A stretch of 23,093 bases of DNA from an uncultured archaeon (GCA_964354495.1 CAYHAA010000026.1:1-23093); one strand, 5' to 3'; counted from the first letter of the stretch, positions 11,154 through 23,093 are shown. A program made the numbers and translations. The notes: a model not told the origin generated them from the sequence alone.

Positions 11154-11358
11154 TGCTTCTTCGTGCTCTCACTCTCCCTGCGCCATGTGGGAGCATCACA
11201 CACTGAAGACATCCCTCTTCCTAGGCCCGGTAGGCACATACTCCGAGATGGTCTTGAGAACAACGTTAAAAAGGATATCAAAACGCGGTCTTCACTTGTA
11301 GTACGAATAGCCCTAGTTGATTGGCCATTCGATACGGATACTAAAAGTGGTGTTTGAG

Positions 11359-12369
11359 TTGGCGCACAGAAAAAAGGAAGCACCAAGACGTGGCAGTCTA
11401 GCATACTTGCCACGAGGTAGGGCCTCTAAATTTGTGCCCCGTATCAAGAATTGGCCTGAGTATAAGGAATCGGCTGCAAAACTACTCGGCTTCATCGGTT
11501 ACAAGGCGGGCATGACTCATGCTGTTGTGACAATAAACAATCCTGAGAGTCCATTCAATGGACAGGAAACAGTTGTCCCAGTCACAGTCATTGATGCCCC
11601 ACCAATCAGGCCGTTCTCAGTTCGCGGTTATGAAGCGACTCCCTATGGCTTGAGGCTTGTATCAGAAGTTCTTGCCAGCAATCTGTCGGAAGACCTTCGA
11701 AAGACATTGCCACTGCCAAAAGAGTACAGTCATGAGACCAAGATGACTGAGTTCGAGTCAAAGCTCGACTCGTTTACCGAAATCCGGATGCTTGTACACA
11801 CTCAGCCAAGACTTGCGGGACTATCGAAGAAGAAGCCTGATGTAACGGAATACAAGGTAGGCACTGATGGTAATGCCAGAGCGGCCTTTGAGTATGCCAA
11901 GAGCATTCTTGGCACTGATGTCCGTGTGGCAGACATCCTTAACGAGGGAATTCTCATCGATACGATTGCGGTGACCAAGGGTCATGGCTTTCAGGGCGTA
12001 GTCCGCCGTTGGGGTGTTGGAATTCTTCAGCACAAATCTAGAAAGACAAAGCGTGGAGTAGGCTGTATCGGTCCATGGGTCCCATCCAGTATTAGGTATA
12101 CGGTGCCTAGGTCAGGTCAGACCGGTTTCCACAAGCGTACAAGCTTCAACAACATGGTGCTGAAGATGGGCGAACGTGGCGAGGAAATCACACCATCTGG
12201 TGGATTTATGAACTACGGAGTGATTCGCGGCGACTACATAATGCTTCATGGGTCAATTCCTGGTACAATAAAGCGACCAGTGAGACTCAGACTTGCCATA
12301 CGTCCGAAGATGGGTCAGAAAGAGGGCCCGATGCAGGTGAGCTACGTCAGCACATCATCGAAGCAATAG
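11359..12369 (+). CDS. rpl3: 50S ribosomal protein uL3
   Basis: HRKKEAPRRGSLAYLPR, GYKAGMTH and TKGHGFQGVVRRWG. Start set at TTG 11359 behind a GGTG SD-like site, rather than 11317. Confidence 0.97.
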   Translation: MAHRKKEAPRRGSLAYLPRGRASKFVPRIKNWPEYKESAAKLLGFIGYKAGMTHAVVTINNPESPFNGQETVVPVTVIDAPPIRPFSVRGYEATPYGLRLVSEVLASNLSEDLRKTLPLPKEYSHETKMTEFESKLDSFTEIRMLVHTQPRLAGLSKKKPDVTEYKVGTDGNARAAFEYAKSILGTDVRVADILNEGILIDTIAVTKGHGFQGVVRRWGVGILQHKSRKTKRGVGCIGPWVPSSIRYTVPRSGQTGFHKRTSFNNMVLKMGERGEEITPSGGFMNYGVIRGDYIMLHGSIPGTIKRPVRLRLAIRPKMGQKEGPMQVSYVSTSSKQ

Positions 12370-12373
12370 GAGG

Positions 12374-13174
12374 ATGACATCTATGGCAACCGTAAAGACT
12401 TACACATTAACTGGTAAGGCCAGTAAGGAAACAATCGAACTACCGCCCCATTTTGATACTCCCTATCGTCCCGATGTGATCAGGAGGGCAGTGTTGGCAG
12501 TCCAGTCACGTAGATTCCAACCACATGGTGTTGATGAACTGGCAGGCAAGCGCAACACTGCTCAGAGTTGGCAGACTGGTCACGCCAAGGCCAGAGTACC
12601 AAGAATCAAAGGCAGTGGAACAGGCGCAGCTAACAAGGCAGGTTTTGCTCCTAGTACCGTGGGCGGCAGAAGGGCACATCCTCCGGAGGCACGAAAAGTC
12701 ATTGTTGAGCGCGTGAACGTCAAAGAGAATCGACTGGCTATCCGTTCAGCAATTGCAGCTACTGCAAACTCGCAGTTCGTGAAGAAGAGAGGCCACAAGA
12801 TAGACAATGTACCCATCATTCCCCTCGTTGTGAGTAGCAAGCTTGAATCAGTTGCCACCACGAAGGAGGCATATGACACACTTGCTGCACTGGGACTTGG
12901 CGATGACCTTGAGAGAGCTAGCAACGGCCGTGTCATCAGAGCTGGCAAAGGAAAGATGCGGGGTCGGAAGATGAAGACCCCGAAATCGCTACTGATTGTC
13001 GTCGGTACCGACTCTGGAATTGGCGCAGCCGCAAGGAATCTTCCTGGAGTGGACATTGCTGAGGTCCAGGGTCTGAATGCGGAGCTCTTGGCTCCTGGAA
13101 CACATGCAGGACGCCTGGTGGTCTGGACAACTTCGGCCATTGACAGGCTTGGAAAGGAGAATCTATTCATCTGA
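12374..13174 (+). CDS. rpl4: 50S ribosomal protein uL4
   Basis: RPDVIRRAV, AQSWQTGHAKARVPR, GGRRAHPP and LAPGTHAGRL. Confidence 0.97.
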   Translation: MTSMATVKTYTLTGKASKETIELPPHFDTPYRPDVIRRAVLAVQSRRFQPHGVDELAGKRNTAQSWQTGHAKARVPRIKGSGTGAANKAGFAPSTVGGRRAHPPEARKVIVERVNVKENRLAIRSAIAATANSQFVKKRGHKIDNVPIIPLVVSSKLESVATTKEAYDTLAALGLGDDLERASNGRVIRAGKGKMRGRKMKTPKSLLIVVGTDSGIGAAARNLPGVDIAEVQGLNAELLAPGTHAGRLVVWTTSAIDRLGKENLFI

Positions 13175-13185
13175 GGTGAGCTATC

Positions 13186-13449
13186 ATGAGAGATCCAAAT
13201 GAAGTGATTATCCGACCAGTTGTGACAGAGGCCAGTCTTAAGGCCGTGGATAAAGAGAACAAGCTTGTATTCTATGTTGCATTCAACGCCAACAAGAACA
13301 CTATTCGGTGGGCAGTGGAATCCCTCTACGAAGTCGTAGTGGCTAAAGTCAACACGCTCATAATGCCTGATGGAAGAAAGAAGGCATTTGTGAGATTGGC
13401 GCCAGAGTATAGTGCTGCAGAGGTTGCGACCAACCTCGGGATATTCTAG
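13186..13449 (+). CDS. rpl23: 50S ribosomal protein uL23
   Basis: IIRPVVTEAS, NKLVFYV and KVNTLIMPDGRKKAFVRL. GAGGTGA SD at 13173-13179. Confidence 0.97.
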   Translation: MRDPNEVIIRPVVTEASLKAVDKENKLVFYVAFNANKNTIRWAVESLYEVVVAKVNTLIMPDGRKKAFVRLAPEYSAAEVATNLGIF

Positions 13450-13461
13450 GGAGGCTTATGA

Positions 13462-14172
13462 ATGGGCAGACGTATACTTGTACAACGAAAAGGGAGAGGT
13501 ACTACTCAGTGGAGGTCTCCGGGCCACAAGAAGATTGCACCGGCTCGACATCCCAAATGGGCACCCGGCAAGACCTATGTGGGAACAATTGTCAATCTCC
13601 ACCACGAATCAGGTAGAGGAGCACCTCTTGCTGTAGTGAGATACGGGGGCGAGACCAAGCTTCACTACATGGTGGCACCCGAAGGAGCGCAGGTTGGCCA
13701 GATGCTAGAGTGTGGCGAGAATGCACATCTAGAGAACGGCAACACCATGATGCTTGAATACATCCCAGAAGGCACACCTGTCTATAACATAGAGGGCAGT
13801 CCTGGTGACGGTGGGAAGTATGTCAAGGCATCAGGCCTTACTGCGACGATTGTGTCAATCGACAAGACAAGGGCAATGATCAGACTTCCAAGCGGCGCCC
13901 AGAAGGCATTCAGTCCGCGATGCCGAGCAACAATAGGTATCGTCGCTGGTGGTGGTCGGCCAGAAAAGCCATTCTTGAGAGCAGGTGCGGTCTGGCATTC
14001 TGTCAGCGGAACAGCACAAAAGTGGCCTGTGGTCCGAGGTACTGCGATGAATGCGTGCTCACATCCACACGGTGGTCATTCTCATAAACCAAAGACGAGT
14101 AGTAGGAATGATCCTCCCGGTCGTAAGGTGGGTAGCATCGCAGCTCGAAGAACTGGTCTCAAGTCAAAGTAA
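13462..14172 (+). CDS. rpl2: 50S ribosomal protein uL2
   Basis: MGRRILVQRKGRG, HESGRGAPLA, VRGTAMNACSHPHGG and PPGRKVGSIAARRTG. Confidence 0.97.
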   Translation: MGRRILVQRKGRGTTQWRSPGHKKIAPARHPKWAPGKTYVGTIVNLHHESGRGAPLAVVRYGGETKLHYMVAPEGAQVGQMLECGENAHLENGNTMMLEYIPEGTPVYNIEGSPGDGGKYVKASGLTATIVSIDKTRAMIRLPSGAQKAFSPRCRATIGIVAGGGRPEKPFLRAGAVWHSVSGTAQKWPVVRGTAMNACSHPHGGHSHKPKTSSRNDPPGRKVGSIAARRTGLKSK

Positions 14173-14181
14173 GAATCCATT

Positions 14182-14216
14182 AGAGAAGAGGCTACTCTTC
14201 TCTTCTTCCCTTTTTT
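14182..14216 (+). terminator. Hairpin plus U-tract terminator ending the rpl3-rpl2 unit
   Basis: Perfect 9-bp stem AGAGAAGAG-GCTA-CTCTTCTCT followed by TCTTCCCTTTTTT, 10 nt after the rpl2 stop. Confidence 0.75.
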
Positions 14217-14287
14217 AACCCAATCAGTACGTGAGTATTACACACAGCCATATGCCACTTGTTCCTCAATTGCACAGAGGACTCGCC

Positions 14288-14470
14288 ATGCGGCTCATAG
14301 CAGTGCACTTGCCCGATAGGATTCTGGACGACATCCAACAACTGGTCAAAAATGGTCTCTACCCTAATCGGTCCGAGGCGATCAGAATTGCCATCCGTGA
14401 CCTTCTGAAACGGGAGTTATGGGATCAAAGCATGCTCCCAAACGAGCGAATCAGTGAGGTCGTGGGATGA
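14288..14470 (+). CDS. cdrS: Ribbon-helix-helix transcription factor, CdrS-like cell-division regulator
   Basis: MRLIAVHLP...GLYPNRSEAIRIAIRDLL is an RHH signature. Its stop overlaps the ftsZ start (ATGA). Start reassigned from 14231 to ATG 14288. Confidence 0.8.
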   Translation: MRLIAVHLPDRILDDIQQLVKNGLYPNRSEAIRIAIRDLLKRELWDQSMLPNERISEVVG

Positions 14471-15726
14471 TGAAGTCGTTCATTGATTCTGCTCGCGAGA
14501 ACAGCCATACCGAGCGAGGCTCTTCTAGTGCGCGTGATGTCGGCCAGGCACGTATTGTCGTAGTCGGCTGTGGAGGCGCTGGAAACAACACCGTGAAGAG
14601 ACTCATGACCATAGGAATCCAGGGTGCTGAGTGCATAGCAATCAACACAGATCGGCAACACCTAGCTGTTACAACAGCGCATAGGAAACTGCTAATTGGT
14701 GAGAGAATCACTCGGGGGCTTGGAGCCGGAGGCTATCCCCATGTTGGCAAAGCCGCAGCAGAGGAGTCCGCTGGGCAGCTGACAGAACTGCTTCGTGACG
14801 CCGATCTTGTCTTCATTGCGGCAGGCTTGGGTGGCGGTACCGGAACTGGCAGTGCTCCCGTTGTTGCAGAGATTGCGAAGAAGAACGATGCCATTGTTGT
14901 GGGCGTTGTGACAATGCCCTTCAGTCTCGAACGGTCCCGAATCGACAAGGCCAAGGCAGGCCTTGCTCGTCTGCAGGAAAACGTCGATACGGCAGTAGTA
15001 ATTGATAATCAGAAGCTCATGGAACTGGTTCCTGATCTCCCCTTGGAGGAAGCATTTGGAGTCGCTGACGAAGTCCTTGCAAACATGGTCAAGGGCATTA
15101 CTGAGACCATCACTATGCCAAGTCTAATCAATCTGGACTATGCTGATGTACGGTCAATCATCTGCAATGGTGGAGTCGCTCTTGTAGGTCTTGGAGAGGC
15201 TACAGGACCTGACCGAGTTCAAGAGGCAATCAAGAACGCACTTAACAGCCCATTACTAGAAGTGGAATGGGACGGCGCAACTGGAGCATTGATTCACATC
15301 ACCGGTGGTCCAGATATGAGCCTCGCAGAGGCCAACAAGGTAGGAGAGATACTTTCCGAAAAGATGAGCCCGAATGCGAATGTCATCTGGGGGGCACGTG
15401 TTGACCCAAGACTGGGTGGTATACTACGTGTCATGCTCATACTCACTGGTGTGAAGAGTCCACAGCTACTTCCGCGCTCCAAGGAAGAATCTGGAATCTC
15501 AGTGGCAACAAAACGTCTGGCTGAGTATGGGATCATTGGGTCAAAAACAGAAGCACTAGGATCAGCTCAAGCAAGAGCAACCGCCTTTGGCAAGCTCCCC
15601 GAATCTCCTCGCGGAAATTGGGAAGATCGCCTGAAACCTCTAGAACGGACACTCTCTAGTCGAAAACAGAACGAGTATTCCAAAAAGAAGGAGCTCGAGG
15701 AGCTCGGACTCCGCAAGCTTCTCTAG
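14467..15726 (+). CDS. ftsZ: Cell division protein FtsZ (FtsZ2-like)
   Basis: VVGCGGAGNN, INTDRQHL, GLGAGG, tubulin signature GGGTGTG and T7 loop NLDYADV. Confidence 0.96.
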   Translation: MMKSFIDSARENSHTERGSSSARDVGQARIVVVGCGGAGNNTVKRLMTIGIQGAECIAINTDRQHLAVTTAHRKLLIGERITRGLGAGGYPHVGKAAAEESAGQLTELLRDADLVFIAAGLGGGTGTGSAPVVAEIAKKNDAIVVGVVTMPFSLERSRIDKAKAGLARLQENVDTAVVIDNQKLMELVPDLPLEEAFGVADEVLANMVKGITETITMPSLINLDYADVRSIICNGGVALVGLGEATGPDRVQEAIKNALNSPLLEVEWDGATGALIHITGGPDMSLAEANKVGEILSEKMSPNANVIWGARVDPRLGGILRVMLILTGVKSPQLLPRSKEESGISVATKRLAEYGIIGSKTEALGSAQARATAFGKLPESPRGNWEDRLKPLERTLSSRKQNEYSKKKELEELGLRKLL

Positions 15727-15841
15727 ACGATGCCATCGTGGTGAAGCGATAGAGTTGGCCGATTGATGCAGCAATGGACCTAGTTCGACCTAGTCATGAC
15801 TCGAGTTGTCTTTTGTATCTGCCAATGTTTCTGATTACTAC

Positions 15842-16276
15842 TTATGCAAGACCATGTTCTTTCAGCCATTCATCCGCAATAGCTGCTACACGTTCGTACA
15901 GAGGCCCTGATCCATCTACTCCCTCAGGTGTTATTCGTATCTTGTTCATCACTACGATGACTCCAGTTTCAGGATAGAAGTTTACGCCTCCTGGTGGGAA
16001 TGTCTTCTCTAGTTCCTTAGCAAGGCCCTCAAGACTAATCTCTTTCTGGGCTACTGAGAATGTACTGATACTGCTACCATAGATGAAGATCTTCGGGATG
16101 TTAGTCCCGCCACCTGCGACAACAACATCTGATAGGATGATGCTCAGGGTTGCCTGATCAATTCCCTTGAGAGTGCCTTGGTAGACCTTTCCTTCCTTTG
16201 TCGTGACTTCGACTGTTGCACCGACAACCGCTGCCAATTCGCGGTTGAAGGTTCTCATTGCTGCGACATCTGACAT
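15842..16276 (-). CDS. Sm-like (Lsm) protein with a C-terminal extension, SmAP3 type
   Basis: Sm1 motif (VEVTTKEGKVYQGTLKGID...SIILSD) and Sm2 motif (KIFIYGSSI), plus a ~65-aa C-domain (LAKELEKTFPPGGV...VMNKIRI). 144 aa. Confidence 0.85.
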   Translation of the reverse strand: MSDVAAMRTFNRELAAVVGATVEVTTKEGKVYQGTLKGIDQATLSIILSDVVVAGGGTNIPKIFIYGSSISTFSVAQKEISLEGLAKELEKTFPPGGVNFYPETGVIVVMNKIRITPEGVDGSGPLYERVAAIADEWLKEHGLA

Positions 16277-16282
16277 AAAGTT

Positions 16283-16313
16283 TCACCACTAAAGCAAGTA
16301 GCTTTAGAGGTGA
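16283..16313. repeat. 31-bp inverted repeat covering the Lsm SD sequence
   Basis: TCACC-A-CTAAAGC-AAGTA-GCTTTAG-A-GGTGA: 12 paired positions with one symmetric mismatch. Confidence 0.8.
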
Positions 16314-16330
16314 GGGCTGCAGGTTTCCTG

Positions 16331-16338
16331 TTTTAAAA
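16331..16338 (-). promoter_or_regulatory. Putative TATA box for the Lsm gene
   Basis: TTTTAAAA 55 nt upstream of the ATG. Confidence 0.45.
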
Positions 16339-16496
16339 TTGCTGATAGAGTCTGAACTTGTCGAGCGCCAAGAGAACACGCTAATGTGACCAGTGTCTAT
16401 TGTACTGCGTCCGCTTTGCGTGAACTGGGTTTATCGGTGCTTAAATTGCATGAACCATCATGACAAGTCAGTTCATACAGGAGCAGAGAGCTTCCA

Positions 16497-17462
16497 ATGG
16501 TGACAAGACAGACCCAAGAACTGGCAGAATCAGCGACACACAAGTCCTCCATTTGGGCTTCAATTGGGCTCATCAGACTTGGAGGAGTCATGCTGTCTAT
16601 TGCAGTGATCTGGAGAATAGTGGATCAGTTTGTATTGAATCTTGGCAGCACTTGGATGAACATTCTCCCCTCAAAGATGTTCCCGTTCCTAATCATTCTT
16701 GGTTTCTTCTGGAAATATCGTCCACGGGAACTTGTATCAGTCCTCGGTCTCTCACGGGATAGAATCCGGGCTCAACTTGCACTCGGGCTTCTAATTGGTG
16801 CAATATTCGCAATAGGCATTGACTTTGGAGGAACCATTGTCTATGCGCTGTTCTTCGATTCGACATACCCCCTTGAACTCCGTATCCTGAACCAAGGACT
16901 ACTTGGGTATACTCTCATCTTCTTCCTAACGAACGCATTGCTTGAAGAGACCCTGTTCAGAGGTCTTCTCCTGAATGCCTTCAAGACTCGCCTTACAGCA
17001 AAGTTGTCAATCATGCTATCGGCCATTGTGTTCGGCATTTGGCATGCAGGCTGGCCCATCATCAACGGCGGCTCTGACGTTCTTGATCAAGTAGCTTCCA
17101 TAGTGTTCTTCACAACCATACTCGGTATAATCTTTGGTGTCTACTATGAACGGTTCAGTTCTGCCCGCTCTCTTGTTGGCCCAATAACCGTTCACACACT
17201 TACCAACTTCTTCAGTGAGAGTTTCAAACTTGGTCCAGAACCGGTAATCCAAGGTCCAGATTTGGCCTTCTCGAATAGTGGACTCATGGCATCAACATTT
17301 CTAATGTTTCTAGTAGTATTCATTCCACTAATCATATTCCTCTGGAAATTCAAGATTGAACAAGTGACAGCCACGTGGCTGAGAGTGATAGGTAAGAATG
17401 ACAGAGTAACAACAGGGTACGATGATGGTCGCTGTAATAATGACAAGAGGAACGAGGAATAG
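16497..17462 (+). CDS. CPBP/Abi (CAAX protease II) family intramembrane metalloprotease
   Basis: LLEETLFRG (EExxxR), FGIWH and HTLTN (HxxxN) motifs, with multiple TM helices. Confidence 0.92.
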   Translation: MVTRQTQELAESATHKSSIWASIGLIRLGGVMLSIAVIWRIVDQFVLNLGSTWMNILPSKMFPFLIILGFFWKYRPRELVSVLGLSRDRIRAQLALGLLIGAIFAIGIDFGGTIVYALFFDSTYPLELRILNQGLLGYTLIFFLTNALLEETLFRGLLLNAFKTRLTAKLSIMLSAIVFGIWHAGWPIINGGSDVLDQVASIVFFTTILGIIFGVYYERFSSARSLVGPITVHTLTNFFSESFKLGPEPVIQGPDLAFSNSGLMASTFLMFLVVFIPLIIFLWKFKIEQVTATWLRVIGKNDRVTTGYDDGRCNNDKRNEE

Positions 17463-17465
17463 AAA

Positions 17466-18152
17466 ATGCAAGCAGGCGCTGATTTGGTACTGATTTCAAG
17501 CATAGCAACAATCCTGATTTCTGCGGTGATCAGTGTATATCTGGGACGGCAATGGTATCGTCAGGAGGCCAGACTCATCACTGACCTACCATTGGTCTTT
17601 GCAATCTCCTTTGTAAGTCAGACTCTCAACATGATGATACTGACTCTTCCAAACGTTGGGCTCCTAGAACCATCTATGGAACTCTTTCGGCTTCGTTCTG
17701 TTGTGATTAGTGGTGCAACTGTACCGATTCTGGGTGCTCTTCTCCAAATATGGGCACCTTCTATTCAAAAATATCACAATCGACTTGTCTATCTCCTTCT
17801 CTTATATTGGGTCTCTGTTGCGCTTTTCGGGACAACAGAACAGTTCGTCATGATCATGACGATTCCTGTGATACTAATCCTCGGTCTCATGATGATGGCG
17901 ACATTTGCCATAACTTGGAAGACAGGTCGTCTCAAAGAGGTACGAAGTGACCTCATGATCATATCTGTCCTCTTCGGCATGATGAGCCAAGTCTTGCGAG
18001 TCCCCTTCATCTCCACGCCATTCTTCTATATCCCTGATGTTCTTCTTACCGTATCAATGGTCGGAACTGCACTAGCCCTTACGAATCCCTGGTACCATAG
18101 AGAGGCGAAGACGCAGATGGCAGAATCGCCCCAGATGACCATGAGCTACTGA
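17466..18152 (+). CDS. Hypothetical integral membrane protein with about 7 TM helices
   Basis: Seven hydrophobic stretches by eye in 228 aa. It starts 3 nt after the CPBP stop. No family recognised. Confidence 0.75.
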   Translation: MQAGADLVLISSIATILISAVISVYLGRQWYRQEARLITDLPLVFAISFVSQTLNMMILTLPNVGLLEPSMELFRLRSVVISGATVPILGALLQIWAPSIQKYHNRLVYLLLLYWVSVALFGTTEQFVMIMTIPVILILGLMMMATFAITWKTGRLKEVRSDLMIISVLFGMMSQVLRVPFISTPFFYIPDVLLTVSMVGTALALTNPWYHREAKTQMAESPQMTMSY

Positions 18153-18279
18153 TTGAGCTGAATGGAAGGTAGCTTCTGCCTGTCCATTAGAGGAGGAATC
18201 GTAACACCTGTTGGGAGAGGCATGAAAGGCTATAGAGAATGGATTATTAGTCTCTCACACGCCAAGTCCGTGGACATAG

Positions 18280-19119
18280 GTGAAACCGTTGACCGAGACC
18301 TCTAGGCACTTTGCACTCGACTACTTACGCGAAGAAACCCTTCCGAGCACCTTTTGCAGTGGGTGTGGCGCAGGGGAAGTGACAAACGCCCTCATCAGAG
18401 CAGTGAAGGATCTTGGTCACGCTGACCTCAGCAAGTTCTCCTTTGTTTCAGGCATTGGCTGCAGTTCTTGGATTACATCACCCTACTTCAAGGCTGACAC
18501 TCTTCATACCACTCATGGCAGAGCTATTGCGTTCGCCACAGGGCTGAAGCTTGCTAACCCGGACTTGAAGGTAATTGTGATCAGCGGTGACGGTGATCTT
18601 GCAGCTATTGGCGGAAATCACCTTATTCATGCAGCAAGACGAAACATCGATATGACCGTCATCTGCGTTAACAACTATATCTACGGCATGACTGGCGGGC
18701 AGGTCGGCCCGACGACCTTCACTGGAGACCGGACTAGCACATCTCCCTATGGGAATCCAGAACGTCCTTTCGATCTCGCTCGTCTGGTTGCTGCAGCGGG
18801 CGCCAACTATGTTGCTCGATGGACGACTGCTCATCCTGTTCAGGCAGCACGTGCGATAAGAACAGCCATTGAGAAGAAAGGGTTCTCCTTTGTCGAGATG
18901 ATATCCCAATGTCCAACAGCGTATGGCCGTCGGACTGGTACCGGTAGCCCTGAAGAGATGATTGCTTGGTTCAAGAAGTATCCCGTGCGCAAGAAGGACG
19001 ACCCAGTGGAGCAGAGAACTCCCACAAGGGATGGACTGGACCTGGGAGTCTTCGCAGACCGCGATGAGATTGAGTTCATCGACTCAATGAGAGCAATCTA
19101 CGCGAATTTGGAGGCATAA
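18280..19119 (+). CDS. korB: 2-oxoacid:ferredoxin oxidoreductase beta subunit
   Basis: FCSGCG, SGIGCS, HTTHGRAIAFATG, TPP motif GDGD...GGNH...NNYIYGMTGGQ and SQCPT. GTG start. Confidence 0.93.
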   Translation: MKPLTETSRHFALDYLREETLPSTFCSGCGAGEVTNALIRAVKDLGHADLSKFSFVSGIGCSSWITSPYFKADTLHTTHGRAIAFATGLKLANPDLKVIVISGDGDLAAIGGNHLIHAARRNIDMTVICVNNYIYGMTGGQVGPTTFTGDRTSTSPYGNPERPFDLARLVAAAGANYVARWTTAHPVQAARAIRTAIEKKGFSFVEMISQCPTAYGRRTGTGSPEEMIAWFKKYPVRKKDDPVEQRTPTRDGLDLGVFADRDEIEFIDSMRAIYANLEA

Positions 19120-19125
19120 GCTCTG

Positions 19126-19650
19126 ATGAGAACGGAGATTCGCATTGCAGGCACTGGCGGAATGGGTGTCGTTCTTGCGGGTGTCATTCTCGGACACGCA
19201 GCAGTTGTCTATGGCGGACTTGATGCAGTCCAGAGTCAGAGCTACGGCCCTGAGGCGCGCGGTACCGCTGCCAAGAGCGAGGTGATAATCAGCGATAAGC
19301 CGATTCAATATCCAAAGGTCCGTCAATCAGACTATTTCGTTGTCATGTCACAAAAGGCATTTGAGATGTACCTAGGCGGTTCGAAGAAGGACAGCGTCAT
19401 CATTGCTGACCCCGACCTTGTAACGACTGAGAGAATCAAAGGCTTTGAGATTGTAGAGGTACCGGCGATGAAGACCGCCGATGAGCTCGGTCTCAGGCTT
19501 GTTTCGAATATGGTGATGCTCGGAGCTCTCGTGAAGAAGGCTGAGCTCTTTCCACTTGATGTTCTGGAAAAGGCACTGCTTGAGTTCGTGCCTTCAAAGG
19601 CGCTAGAGATCAACACCAATGCAGTTCGTGCTGGTTCGAAATTTGTCTAA
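19126..19650 (+). CDS. korC: 2-oxoacid:ferredoxin oxidoreductase gamma subunit
   Basis: EIRIAGTGGMGVVLAG, QSYGPEARG and NMVMLGAL. Confidence 0.93.
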   Translation: MRTEIRIAGTGGMGVVLAGVILGHAAVVYGGLDAVQSQSYGPEARGTAAKSEVIISDKPIQYPKVRQSDYFVVMSQKAFEMYLGGSKKDSVIIADPDLVTTERIKGFEIVEVPAMKTADELGLRLVSNMVMLGALVKKAELFPLDVLEKALLEFVPSKALEINTNAVRAGSKFV

Positions 19651-20024: not shown

Positions 20025-21530
20025 ATGGCTCTAGAGAACAAGCCCGACCAGCCAGAGGTATCATCGAGCAGATACGCTCGCATGTTTGGTCTGGAAGGAG
20101 CTACATCCGATGCTGTTCGTCTAGTGAAGATTCTATCTGTTCTACTCCCCGCCCTTGGAGCAAGCTTTCAAATTAGCACCACATTCTGGATGATCTTCAT
20201 CGCAGAGTCACTGGGAAGCGGCGATTACATCGCTGGGCTCACACTTGTCGGAATCCTTGTTGTCATTCAGATGGCAGTTCAGACTGTTCTTGATTACCCC
20301 ACGGGCGTGGTGGGCGATTGGATTGGCCAGAGATACATACTGGCCTCTTCCCTTCTCTGCTATGCCGCAGCATTTTGGCTCTCTGCACAGATTATCAAAG
20401 ACACTCCCGCTCCCTTCTACATCTATGTGGCAATCTATTTCCTCTTCGGACTTGGTGCCTCGCAGGAGAGTGGAGCTTTCAACGCTTGGTTCGATAACAA
20501 CTATCGAGTAGCAATGCCCCATGATAAAGACCGCAAGATGTACGGCGTGTTTTGGGGCCGCATGGGTATGATCTGGCAGACCTCATCGACACTGGTCCTG
20601 ATCCCTGGCTCATGGCTTGCATGGTATTATAGTGAACAGTGGGTCTTCAATCTCCAGGCCATCTTTGCAGTATTTCTGGCAGTAGTTGTGTTCAGACTCA
20701 TCCGAGACTTGCCTGGGGTCAGGAAAGAGCAGGAGAAACGCCCAACGATTAGTGAGTATGGTACCCTACTAAAGGATGGATTCAAGTTTCTGTGGTCCTC
20801 TCGGTTCGTTACATACATTGTCCTAGGCGGGGTGGTGCTATGGAGCACTGGGCCTGTCTGGTGGAACCTGATTCTATTCCCTCTGTACTTCAGTTATCTT
20901 GTCACAATGGTGGCTGTTTCTGCATTCCGTACCTTCATCTTCATCCCCGAAGCCATCCAAAGCGAAAGAAGTGGTGTGCTGGCGAAGAGATTCGAACCAA
21001 AGAAATGGATTCCACGTCTCAGGTTCCTGCAATTCACAGGTGTCATCTTCTATTTGCTTCTGGCGGTGATTGTCTACGTCTTCCCTGGAGCAGACCCGGA
21101 CACAGCAGAACTAGTGCGGATCCTGATTCCCTTCACGAATCTTCCTCTGATTGAGGTTCCTGTCCAGACCATACTCCCTGTCGCTCTCATCTTCATTCTC
21201 TTTCTGGCCCTGAATATGTTTGGTGCAATTGCAGACATTCTTACTCAACGTGTTATGCTGGATGTCGTACCAAACCGAATTCGTAACTCAATGTATTCCT
21301 TACAACCCACTCTGGTCATGGTGATCTCAATGCCTCTCATCGCATTCTTCGGATGGCTCTTGCCCCAATCTGGTGGGTTCACACTGACCCTGGTCCTCTG
21401 TGCGTTCATCTCACTCGTAGGAACGATGATGATACGAGCGGCCTTCAAGAACCCAATCCCAGTCGCTGAAACAGTTGTTGAGGCAGGTAAGAAAGAGAGC
21501 GAGGAAGTTCAAAAGATGGAAGTCACCTAG
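20025..21530 (+). CDS. MFS transporter
   Basis: Motif A-like DYPTGVVGDWIGQR, GASQESGAFNAW, about 12 TM helices and VPNRIRNSMYSL. Confidence 0.9.
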   Translation: MALENKPDQPEVSSSRYARMFGLEGATSDAVRLVKILSVLLPALGASFQISTTFWMIFIAESLGSGDYIAGLTLVGILVVIQMAVQTVLDYPTGVVGDWIGQRYILASSLLCYAAAFWLSAQIIKDTPAPFYIYVAIYFLFGLGASQESGAFNAWFDNNYRVAMPHDKDRKMYGVFWGRMGMIWQTSSTLVLIPGSWLAWYYSEQWVFNLQAIFAVFLAVVVFRLIRDLPGVRKEQEKRPTISEYGTLLKDGFKFLWSSRFVTYIVLGGVVLWSTGPVWWNLILFPLYFSYLVTMVAVSAFRTFIFIPEAIQSERSGVLAKRFEPKKWIPRLRFLQFTGVIFYLLLAVIVYVFPGADPDTAELVRILIPFTNLPLIEVPVQTILPVALIFILFLALNMFGAIADILTQRVMLDVVPNRIRNSMYSLQPTLVMVISMPLIAFFGWLLPQSGGFTLTLVLCAFISLVGTMMIRAAFKNPIPVAETVVEAGKKESEEVQKMEVT

Positions 21531-21540
21531 TATCTCTATC

Positions 21541-22494
21541 TCACATGCCGAGGGAGAGATGAAGAACTTCGGGATTCAGTCCTCCTGCATGATATACCGT
21601 TCCACTCTCAATGTGATTGAACGTTACCTCCGCAGGACCGAAGAGCAACGGGTCCACCCTGTTGATATCAGAGTCGATGCTCTTGAACAGATCATAGAAG
21701 GGTCGACCGTATTGGCTTGATGTGGACGAAGGTAGTTTCTCTACAATTCCCCGCAAATCATCACTATCGGCGTTCACATGGTAGAAGGTTCTCCCACCGT
21801 ACAATATGCAGTCATTACCCAGACCCTTTGCCCTGTTGTCACTCTTTGCCACTGGCGCGATCGGTGCAACACCATGACCTCTCTTGATTCGATTAAGGTC
21901 GAATCCAATCTGGTGAAGTTTGTGAAGTCCGACTCCGACGACTCTTGAAGAGCTCTGAACTGAACCCGCAACACTCGCTGTGGGCACTATGATACAGTAC
22001 AGACTCGATGGTGCAATTCCACATTTTTCAGCGATGTGCTCAATCACTTCCTCTGTGGGCACCTCTCTAGTTTCAAGTACAATCACGCCCTCCTTTGAAA
22101 CATCGTGATAGTCGATGTCCTCATAGAGTTCCTTCTCCTCCCTTGCCAGAGCTCTAGCTGGACCGGAGCCCATTGCATGATACTTGCCCACTCTGATACT
22201 CCATCCAGCGTACTGCGAACCAAGTGTGGCAATCTTCGGCTGCTCTGCGCTGACTATGACTGCAGGCAGATCGAGGTTTCCAACGAACATTCTGGTCAGT
22301 CTGACGACTCCGAGTCCCCCAAGACAGGTCTCTCCGATGAGCCTTCCAAGCTCTGGGGTTCCCGCGCAATCAATCCCTGCATCAATCAGTGTAGTCCCTG
22401 ATTTCATTGCCTTCACGATACAGAGGAGCTCCTCCTTTCTATCAAGAATCTCCTTGACGACCTCGAGTGCTCCCTGATTCACACTATGATGCAT
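21541..22494 (-). CDS. mch: Methenyl-H4MPT cyclohydrolase homolog with a divergent active site
   Basis: ICLGGLG-like ETCLGGLG, ATLGSQYAGW, GSGPARALA, PTASVAGSVQ, NDCILYGG and DPLLFGPA. The conserved RVVE reads RVVG here. Confidence 0.9.
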   Translation of the reverse strand: MHHSVNQGALEVVKEILDRKEELLCIVKAMKSGTTLIDAGIDCAGTPELGRLIGETCLGGLGVVRLTRMFVGNLDLPAVIVSAEQPKIATLGSQYAGWSIRVGKYHAMGSGPARALAREEKELYEDIDYHDVSKEGVIVLETREVPTEEVIEHIAEKCGIAPSSLYCIIVPTASVAGSVQSSSRVVGVGLHKLHQIGFDLNRIKRGHGVAPIAPVAKSDNRAKGLGNDCILYGGRTFYHVNADSDDLRGIVEKLPSSTSSQYGRPFYDLFKSIDSDINRVDPLLFGPAEVTFNHIESGTVYHAGGLNPEVLHLSLGM

Positions 22495-22644
22495 GCCTGA
22501 ACACCTTGGTGGATGCTTCGTTTTTCGAAGAACACATGCACATTCCTTCGTTTGTCACACAGAAATCTATTGTGCACATGCTATGTTCCATACCATACCA
22601 GATTATTAAGTAGAGAGTGTTCGGGATACGTGGATGCTTCATCA

Positions 22645-23093
22645 ATGCAAGAGATCACTCTCTGGGGCGAGACAAAAAAGGGTGGGAAAGTAGTAGAACG
22701 GTTCGACCCCAATACCACATCAATCAATCTCGGCGACAGGCGAATTGGGTCAATTGACCTTGCCCCACTTGACCAGTTTCTGAATCTTGAAGTATTGACA
22801 CTCTCTGGAAACGAGATTCAGAGCCTTGACCTCTCAGTCCTACATGGCAATGACAGTCTGCTGGAACTCAACCTCGGGAGTAATGAACTCGAAGTCATTG
22901 ACCTCTCGCCATTGGAGAACTGTACTGGTCTGATGCATCTGGACCTCTCCTTCAATAAACTCAGAGCTCTTAATCTTGCACCTCTAGGGGGGTGTAGCAG
23001 CTTGCAGGCACTCCATCTCTACGGAAACAAGCTTGAGCGCATAGACCTCTCACCCCTCAAGAAGTGCAGGAAACTGCGGAACCTGACTCTTAC
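22645..23093 (+). CDS. Leucine-rich repeat protein, 3'-truncated at the window edge (not in the ORF track)
   Basis: Open frame from ATG 22645 to the end. 24-aa repeats: LEVLTLSGNEIQSLDLSVLHGNDS, LLELNLGSNELEVIDLSPLENCTG, LMHLDLSFNKLRALNLAPLGGCSS and LQALHLYGNKLERIDLSPLKKCRK. Confidence 0.92.
   Translation, partial: MQEITLWGETKKGGKVVERFDPNTTSINLGDRRIGSIDLAPLDQFLNLEVLTLSGNEIQSLDLSVLHGNDSLLELNLGSNELEVIDLSPLENCTGLMHLDLSFNKLRALNLAPLGGCSSLQALHLYGNKLERIDLSPLKKCRKLRNLTL

Follow-up and report, generated by a model that had tools for sequence, protein, structure and literature searches.

The window analysed here is a 23,093-nucleotide stretch from the draft genome of an uncultured archaeon (G000; 97.7 % complete, 51 contigs, 3.8 % estimated contamination). 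On its reverse strand, an open reading frame at 21541-22494 encodes a 317-residue protein without internal stops, a full-length protein of the methenyl-H4MPT cyclohydrolase (Mch) fold minus the general-base Glu. This mch-like gene converges with an MFS transporter gene on the forward strand (20025-21530) and diverges from an LRR protein gene, also on the forward strand, which runs off the window (22513-23091). The first 44 codons of the LRR frame are unconserved in relatives, and its start is probably the ATG at 22645 (MQEITLW...) rather than 22513. The spacer between the mch-like gene and this likely true start, assigned to neither strand, spans about 150 bp (22495-22644). It holds an SD-like AAGGTG motif at 22507-22502, which lies 7 nt upstream of the mch-like ATG and is conserved in the Gly-bearing clade described below, as well as a CTTAATAAT element within the stretch shared with the LRR frame (22513-22645). 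No clear TATA box could be named for the mch-like gene within 22495-22644. Elsewhere in the window, the stretch 11317-19650 carries ribosomal protein genes (L4, L2), ftsZ and an Lsm-fold gene with an Lsm_C domain, together with genes for a Rce1-like CAAX protease, a DUF5985 protein and the TPP-binding and gamma subunits of a 2-oxoacid:ferredoxin oxidoreductase.

The product of the mch-like gene matches the Pfam family MCH (PF02289) with 376.7 bits against a cut-off of 25, and the NCBIfam equivalog for methenyl-H4MPT cyclohydrolase (TIGR03120) with 376.2 bits against a cut-off of 228.8. A phmmer search against solved structures yielded end-to-end alignments with the enzymes of M. kandleri (PDB 1qlm, E-value of 2.6e-92), A. 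fulgidus (4gvq) and M. ruminantium (4fio). Mch possesses a unique two-domain fold, and the AlphaFold model of the protein (pLDDT 97.2, pTM 0.94) matched only Mch chains in a Foldseek search, with a TM-score of 0.97 and an RMSD of 1.0 Å to 1QLM. By homology and predicted fold, the product is a member of the Mch family.

Further analysis of the alignment focused on residues 182-189, which read SSRVVGVG. The query segment SRVVGVG stands opposite ARVVETG of 1qlm and GRIVETA of 4gvq, placing Gly187 in the Glu column. By both structure alignment and family column, codon 187 (GGA, 21934-21936, reverse strand) lies at the position that we take to be the catalytic Glu186 of A. fulgidus Mch, and Arg184 (AGA, 21943-21945, reverse strand), presumably the counterpart of Arg183, is kept. 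Glu186 reportedly serves as the general base of the A. fulgidus enzyme with Arg183 as its partner; the E186A/D/N/Q variants are said to be of low activity, nearly inactive, and the E186Q variant reportedly still binds formyl-H4MPT at very low activity. The entries 4gvr and 4gvs represent the same protein as 4gvq with a Gln at exactly the column aligned to Gly187, so this position had been deliberately mutated for mechanistic work. The catalytic role of the Glu is assigned here from that reported mechanistic work and from the existence of the E-to-Q crystal structures; a full-text literature search for Glu186 or E186Q returned no match.

When 1.84 billion cluster representatives were searched exhaustively with HMMER, 1321 members of the family came back. 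In the best 150 of these 1321, whose identity falls as low as 27 %, the Glu position is occupied by E in 145, D in 2, T in 1 and A in 1, and the Arg184 column is invariant (150/150), the Arg being present in every Gly-bearing form as well. Because the two columns are so strongly conserved, the departure from Glu to Gly is, as judged from the family alignment, far from chance variation. Fused Mch forms were also encountered, with the Mch domain at the C-terminus of proteins of 450-700 aa (P0127, P0140, P0143, P0178, P0203 and P0219). At columns conserved to at least 90 %, the query keeps 24 of 25, the sole departure being E187G; at the 80 % level it departs at three of 40, namely A49L, which is genus-wide, E187G and F277I. 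When columns conserved to 60 % are counted, departures from consensus become somewhat more numerous (15-19 vs 8-13). Since only one of the 25 most conserved columns is altered and the confident model superposes on 1QLM, the Mch scaffold, as aligned and modelled, is intact and the loss is specific to the Glu.

Two further motifs are changed: AKGLGND (residues 222-228; 21811-21831, reverse strand) replaces the consensus AMGxTND, and DINRVD (residues 276-281; 21652-21669, reverse strand) replaces DFYKxD. Alignment to the solved structures and the family scores thus bear out the preliminary description on all three motifs, including the retained Arg184 and the GGA codon at 21936-21934, and on an ORF that is otherwise full length and intact. 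All Gly forms share the clade-specific changes D84E, F106H/Y, L127I, F239H and S286G, to which a small subclade (the query, its nearest relative G012, and P0001-P0003), here called pathway-less for reasons given below, adds M223K, T226G, F277I, Y278N and K279R; M223K and T226G are confined to this subclade and the last three are specific to it. These clade-specific changes might mark a new specificity. No compensating acidic residue was seen near position 187; the Gly clade has its specific His at 239 and His/Tyr at 106.

The closest database homologs of the protein are Thorarchaeotal, and position 187 is G, S or A in 22 of the 147 Thorarchaeotal homologs of type a, none of these 22 being truncated (all at least 300 aa). 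Among the 28 species genomes of the genus, Gly is found in G000, G012, G017 and G006, where the codon is GGA, GGG, GGA and GGT, respectively, so the Gly has been kept through synonymous change. In a careful maximum-likelihood tree, the four genome copies form one clade (100/97), sister to the Glu-bearing canonical in-cluster gene of G002 (95/86). A larger tree, built quickly and with residue 187 masked, places the Gly copies inside a 25-member clade (SH-aLRT 99) where E, G, S or A occupies that site; P0004, P0005 and P0014 retain the Glu, and elsewhere in the clade it is replaced by small residues only (G, S, A). On this topology, the 25-member clade would imply at least three losses of Glu, or some reversions. 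Four public sequencing runs, each from a different study, provided contigs that share 93-94 % identity with the window; they differ from it at 21931 and 21937, and among the differences listed, none falls within 21934-21936 (44 less-supported differences lie outside the list). The runs listed for the gene included none of RNA. The refuting case named earlier, reads with GAA at this codon, finds no backing in the listed differences of these contigs, and the sharing of the E-to-G change by a clade, which had been raised as a possibility, is borne out. Gly187 is, on the comparative evidence, an inherited and maintained clade trait and not an error.

Profile search of the genome of the window gave a single Mch match. 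No match to Ftr (PF01913), Mtd (PF01993) or FwdC (TIGR03122) was found in G000 or in the 92 %-complete G012, and all three are present in G006, G017 and G002; CdhC (PF03598) likewise had no match in G000 or G012. No Mer above cut-off was found in these two genomes, the best Mer-like match reaching 191 bits (cut-off 348.7). As a marker, Mer discriminates poorly: G002 alone exceeds the cut-off, and a true Mer is missing even from G006 and G017, two genomes with Ftr and CdhC. A tblastn search of the whole G000 assembly (E<=1) with congeneric Ftr of two types, FwdC, Mtd, CdhC and type-b Mch returned only chance short matches with E > 0.1, so that not even fragments of these pathway genes remain. 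A second Mch was found in neither G000 nor G012, and the canonical second mch whose presence had been raised as a possibility was found in G000 by neither profile search nor tblastn. Across the 28 genus genomes, Ftr is present in 23 and CdhC in 21; the other three genomes without Ftr are incomplete or cut at a contig end. RFAP synthase (TIGR00144), the first committed step of methanopterin synthesis, was not found in G000, G012, G006, G017 or G002, and it is uninformative because it is missing also where the pathway is present. Five genomes carry an ftr-fwdC-mch cluster with no CdhC match (G024, 99 % complete, G002, G007, G041 and G003), and an H4MPT methyl branch without CODH/ACS seems common in the genus.

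The context of a functional Mch, with Ftr and Fwd upstream and Mtd/Hmd downstream, was thus not found in G000 or G012, nor was the combination of CODH/ACS with methyl-branch enzymes that defines a Wood-Ljungdahl pathway. Two of the features that define a functional Mch, its general-base Glu and its pathway setting, are not seen for the mch-like gene. The preliminary description had noted that the gene stands apart from other H4MPT genes and warned against taking it as a sign of a Wood-Ljungdahl branch; both points hold at the genome level. With no Ftr, FwdC, Mtd, CdhC or above-cut-off Mer found in either G000 or G012, annotating the gene as evidence of this branch would be wrong in G000.

We compared the locus across all fetched loci by tblastn with the MFS and LRR proteins of the window and the FwdC and Ftr of G002. 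An ancestral arrangement, LRR, ftr(-), fwdC(+), mch(+) and MFS(-), is found in 18 genomes, where the Mch always bears Glu; a 19th (G043) ends at mch. Seven genomes (G000, G012, G017, G006, G015, G009 and G023) have a reduced locus in which mch alone lies between the LRR and MFS genes, ftr and fwdC being deleted; the spacer at 22495-22644 is the site that these two genes occupy in relatives. A metagenome scan returned five loci, all of the reduced type, and every G-form with known context sits in a reduced locus, all of which conserve the CTTAATAAT element. Since the same LRR and MFS flanks enclose the gene, with ftr and fwdC deleted, the mch-like gene of the window is, by its position in the compared sequences, the ortholog of the ancestral in-cluster mch. 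Its neighbours are only the old flanks, the LRR gene the conserved upstream and the MFS gene the conserved downstream one, and so give no clue to its function. In the seven reduced loci, residue 187 reads G, G, G, G, D, E and E (five departures in seven), versus Glu in 24 of 24 in-cluster copies of the genus. Fisher's test, applied naively, returns p = 1e-4, with the proviso that the copies are not independent phylogenetically and represent about two to three events.

Five of the seven reduced-locus genomes (G017, G006, G015, G023 and, partially, G009) carry a second fwdC-mch-ftr cluster on another contig. The Mch of this cluster, termed type-b, shares 51-56 % identity with the query and retains the Glu; its sequences group in a deep clade of their own (100/100). 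G006 and G017 accordingly combine the same Gly form with a second, canonical fwdC-mch-ftr cluster. The earlier label of the gene as a paralog holds in part: coexistence with a canonical copy is seen only in these two genomes, and in G000 the gene is the only copy and the positional ortholog of the in-cluster mch. The type-b cluster loci (L032-L035, L042, L043, L055 and L056, including G006:C101, G023:C110, G017:C116 and G015:C116) occur in five genus genomes, and the cluster always coincides with deletion of ftr and fwdC between the LRR and MFS genes, never with deletion of mch. From these gene arrangements, the type-b pattern suggests a cluster replacement with consistent retention of the old mch.

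The mch-like gene shows a dN/dS of 0.12 (NG86) to 0.16 (YN00) between G000 and G012, at a dS of about 0.3-0.35, and of 0.10 between G017 and G006; canonical mch pairs span 0.03-0.16. Within the G000-G012 contig, the mch omega of 0.118 is mid-range among 11 other genes (0.03-0.22), which include the POR subunits, FtsZ and ribosomal proteins. The gene is under purifying selection like its neighbours, and because both G000 and G012 are without the pathway, this constraint operated in its absence. The contig is collinear with that of G012, with 90-99 % amino-acid identity over 12 genes.

G000 keeps several pterin-C1 genes, namely two Fae-domain fusions, three MtrH homologs, FolD, Fhs and FTCD. The two Fae-domain fusion genes are adjacent and, with the three MtrH homologs (G000:C1:388728-390584, C1:205211-207720 and C1:260130-260978), persist in both pathway-less genomes, G000 and G012. 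An fhs-folD-ftcD cluster (G000:C4:143991-148047; loci L059, L060 and L078), in which a single 555-aa frame, the fused ftcD, combines formiminotransferase with cyclodeaminase, is conserved in G012, G006, G017, G015, G009, G024 and G014; it is a bacterial/eukaryote-like folate module in a Thorarchaeon. Fhs (FTHFS) is genus-wide (26/28 genomes) and uncorrelated with Gly, and a link of Fhs/FolD to the Gly form was rejected. A gap for a methenyl-H4F cyclohydrolase is unlikely, as FolD keeps the Y-x-x-x-K motif (YVRMKRK), and the fused FTCD adjoining folD and fhs leaves none for a formimino cyclodeaminase. The 5-formyl-THF cyclo-ligase (PF01812) was not found in G000, G012, G006, G017 or G002, genomes with Glu-bearing Mch included, and recycling of 5-formyl-H4F should need an acid/base residue too. 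Neither a genomic partner for the protein nor a metabolic gap emerged from these searches.

Overall, the first interpretation, that several substitutions, proposed there to cluster at the pterin site, suggest lost cyclohydrolase activity or a different C1 carrier or ligand, is supported, with one exception: a different C1 carrier, folate, has no genomic support. Loss of cyclohydrolase activity in the Gly form may be inferred from its sequence. On balance, and with a slight preference, we consider that the mch-like gene is a remnant of the ancestral Thorarchaeial ftr-fwdC-mch cluster, repurposed for a Glu-independent, probably pterin-binding, function. In an ancestor, a second fwdC-mch-ftr cluster would have assumed the canonical step, a situation that persists in G006 and G017, and the old mch copy would thereby have been freed from the need for fast Glu-dependent hydrolysis. 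It would then have been kept for a Glu-independent role that outlasted the loss of the H4MPT/CODH-ACS pathway in the lineage of G000 and G012. In the mechanism judged most likely, the conserved pocket between the two domains still takes up a reduced C1-pterin, of formyl- or methenyl-tetrahydropterin type, which Arg184 and the conserved pocket residues would bind. The protein might serve as a binder, carrier or sensor with no catalysis or very slow turnover, or it might carry out an altered reaction that favours a small residue at 187; in this organism it would not belong to the methyl branch of a Wood-Ljungdahl pathway. Tentatively, and with more doubt than conviction, this could be extended to the Gly/Ser/Ala-187 Mch of Thorarchaeia as a distinct, selectively maintained class, in which Glu-dependent cyclohydrolysis was given up for a pterin-linked role (a carrier or sensor, or a reaction needing a small-residue cavity), which arose by subfunctionalisation on the arrival of the second fwdC-mch-ftr cluster, and which can persist after loss of the H4MPT Wood-Ljungdahl pathway.

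Several observations speak against repurposing and lend some weight to a different reading, in which the protein is a working but slower methenyl-tetrahydropterin cyclohydrolase that relies on Arg184 and an ordered water or hydroxide and serves a low-flux biosynthetic or detoxification need on the pterin pool of the Fae fusions, MetVF/MtrH or FolD. The Mch reaction is very fast, with a very high turnover, so that a residual activity of 0.1-1 % is not negligible, and even a small residual rate might be physiologically useful. A substrate pool may exist, given the retained Fae-domain, MtrH, FolD and Fhs genes, and P0004, P0005 and P0014 of the same 25-member clade keep the Glu; the fold and the other conserved residues are intact and purifying selection is normal. 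We nevertheless hold a slow cyclohydrolase to be rather unlikely. The Glu in 145 of 150 representatives and in all 24 in-cluster copies of the genus indicates that the canonical function evidently requires it, and the replacements in the clade are always small residues, never Asp or Gln. To our knowledge, Ftr (with Fwd) is the only consumer or producer of N5-formyl-H4MPT; with neither Ftr nor Fwd found, the product would be a dead end. A switch to folate appears improbable, whether the protein filled a gap as methenyl-H4F cyclohydrolase, in 5-formyl-H4F recycling or as 5-formimino-H4F cyclodeaminase. Such a role has a precedent in a proposal for Haloferax, where the orphan mch HVO_2573 was suggested to be a methenyl-tetrahydrofolate cyclohydrolase (PMC8305020), and it could draw on the presence of Fhs and FolD and on PF01812 not being found in the five genus genomes searched. 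However, the retained FolD motif and the full FTCD beside folD and fhs leave no evident gap, Fhs does not track the Gly form, the cyclo-ligase is missing also beside Glu-bearing Mch, and the folate reactions are expected to need a general acid/base.

The remaining readings deny the protein a function or doubt its sequence. Decay of a functionless relic towards a pseudogene would fit the missing pathway partners, the lost catalytic residue, the accumulation of M223K, T226G, F277I and Y278N in the pathway-less lineage and the somewhat higher count of consensus departures. We regard it as quite improbable, in view of the dN/dS of 0.12 between two pathway-less genomes, which equals that of working neighbour genes, the full length of all 22 G/S/A forms, the Gly codon kept through synonymous changes, the conserved SD-like motif and the highly confident structure model. 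That the Gly is an artefact of sequencing, assembly or binning, the true codon being GAA or the contig stemming from a pathway-bearing organism, could appeal to the draft state and estimated contamination of G000. This reading is effectively refuted: G012 carries Gly as well and independently lacks the same pathway genes, the contigs of four public runs show no codon difference among those listed, and 22 homologs have G, S or A. Mis-binning in particular is unlikely given the ribosomal protein, FtsZ and Lsm genes on the contig and its collinearity with G012. Repurposing thus stays the preferred reading, and the gene in this Thorarchaeon has probably been repurposed and is not to be read as Wood-Ljungdahl evidence.

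Mch is a routine marker for the archaeal Wood-Ljungdahl pathway in Asgard and other uncultured archaea. Here, an equivalog-grade match of 376 bits lacks the catalytic base, and searches of its genome did not find the pathway. Calls of this kind would inflate the autotrophic or acetogenic capacity credited to some of the Thorarchaeia, a point of practical relevance to the metabolic annotation of Asgard genomes. The order of events at the locus would run from the ancestral cluster through the arrival of a second cluster, the deletion of ftr and fwdC while the old mch stayed, and the loss of the general base, to the loss of the entire pathway with the Glu-less protein kept. The locus may thus represent a natural case of an enzyme escaping its pathway. 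We know of only one reaction otherwise for the Mch fold, and the conserved Glu-less clade offers a specific, clonable candidate for a new pterin-binding function.

Compared to the canonical Mch (EC 3.5.4.27; 1QLM, 4GVQ and 4FIO), the protein shares 40-47 % identity over its full length, TM-scores of 0.94-0.97, Arg184 and nearly all conserved residues, and by position its gene descends from the mch of an ftr-fwdC-mch cluster. It differs in having Gly for the general-base Glu and altered AMGxTND and DFYKxD motifs, and its genome yielded no Ftr, Fwd, Mtd or CODH/ACS in the searches; the TIGR03120 equivalog annotation should not be carried over to it. The A. fulgidus E186Q protein (4GVR/4GVS) is changed at the same position with fold and ligand pocket preserved; however, that Gln was engineered in the laboratory, whereas the Gly here, or Ser/Ala in relatives, is natural, fixed and maintained. 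The orphan haloarchaeal mch (HVO_2573) is likewise an Mch homolog kept where a search for Ftr also found nothing; the proposal made for it assumes normal catalysis on another carrier, whereas here the Glu has been lost and, given FolD and FTCD, no gap in the folate system is evident. Pseudoenzymes are catalytically dead homologs kept for binding, scaffolding or regulation. Similar to these, the mch-like protein has lost one key catalytic residue within an intact, conserved scaffold (one of 25 columns), has been kept under purifying selection and appears to have originated through redundancy with a second active copy, its own inactivity being predicted from the altered residue.
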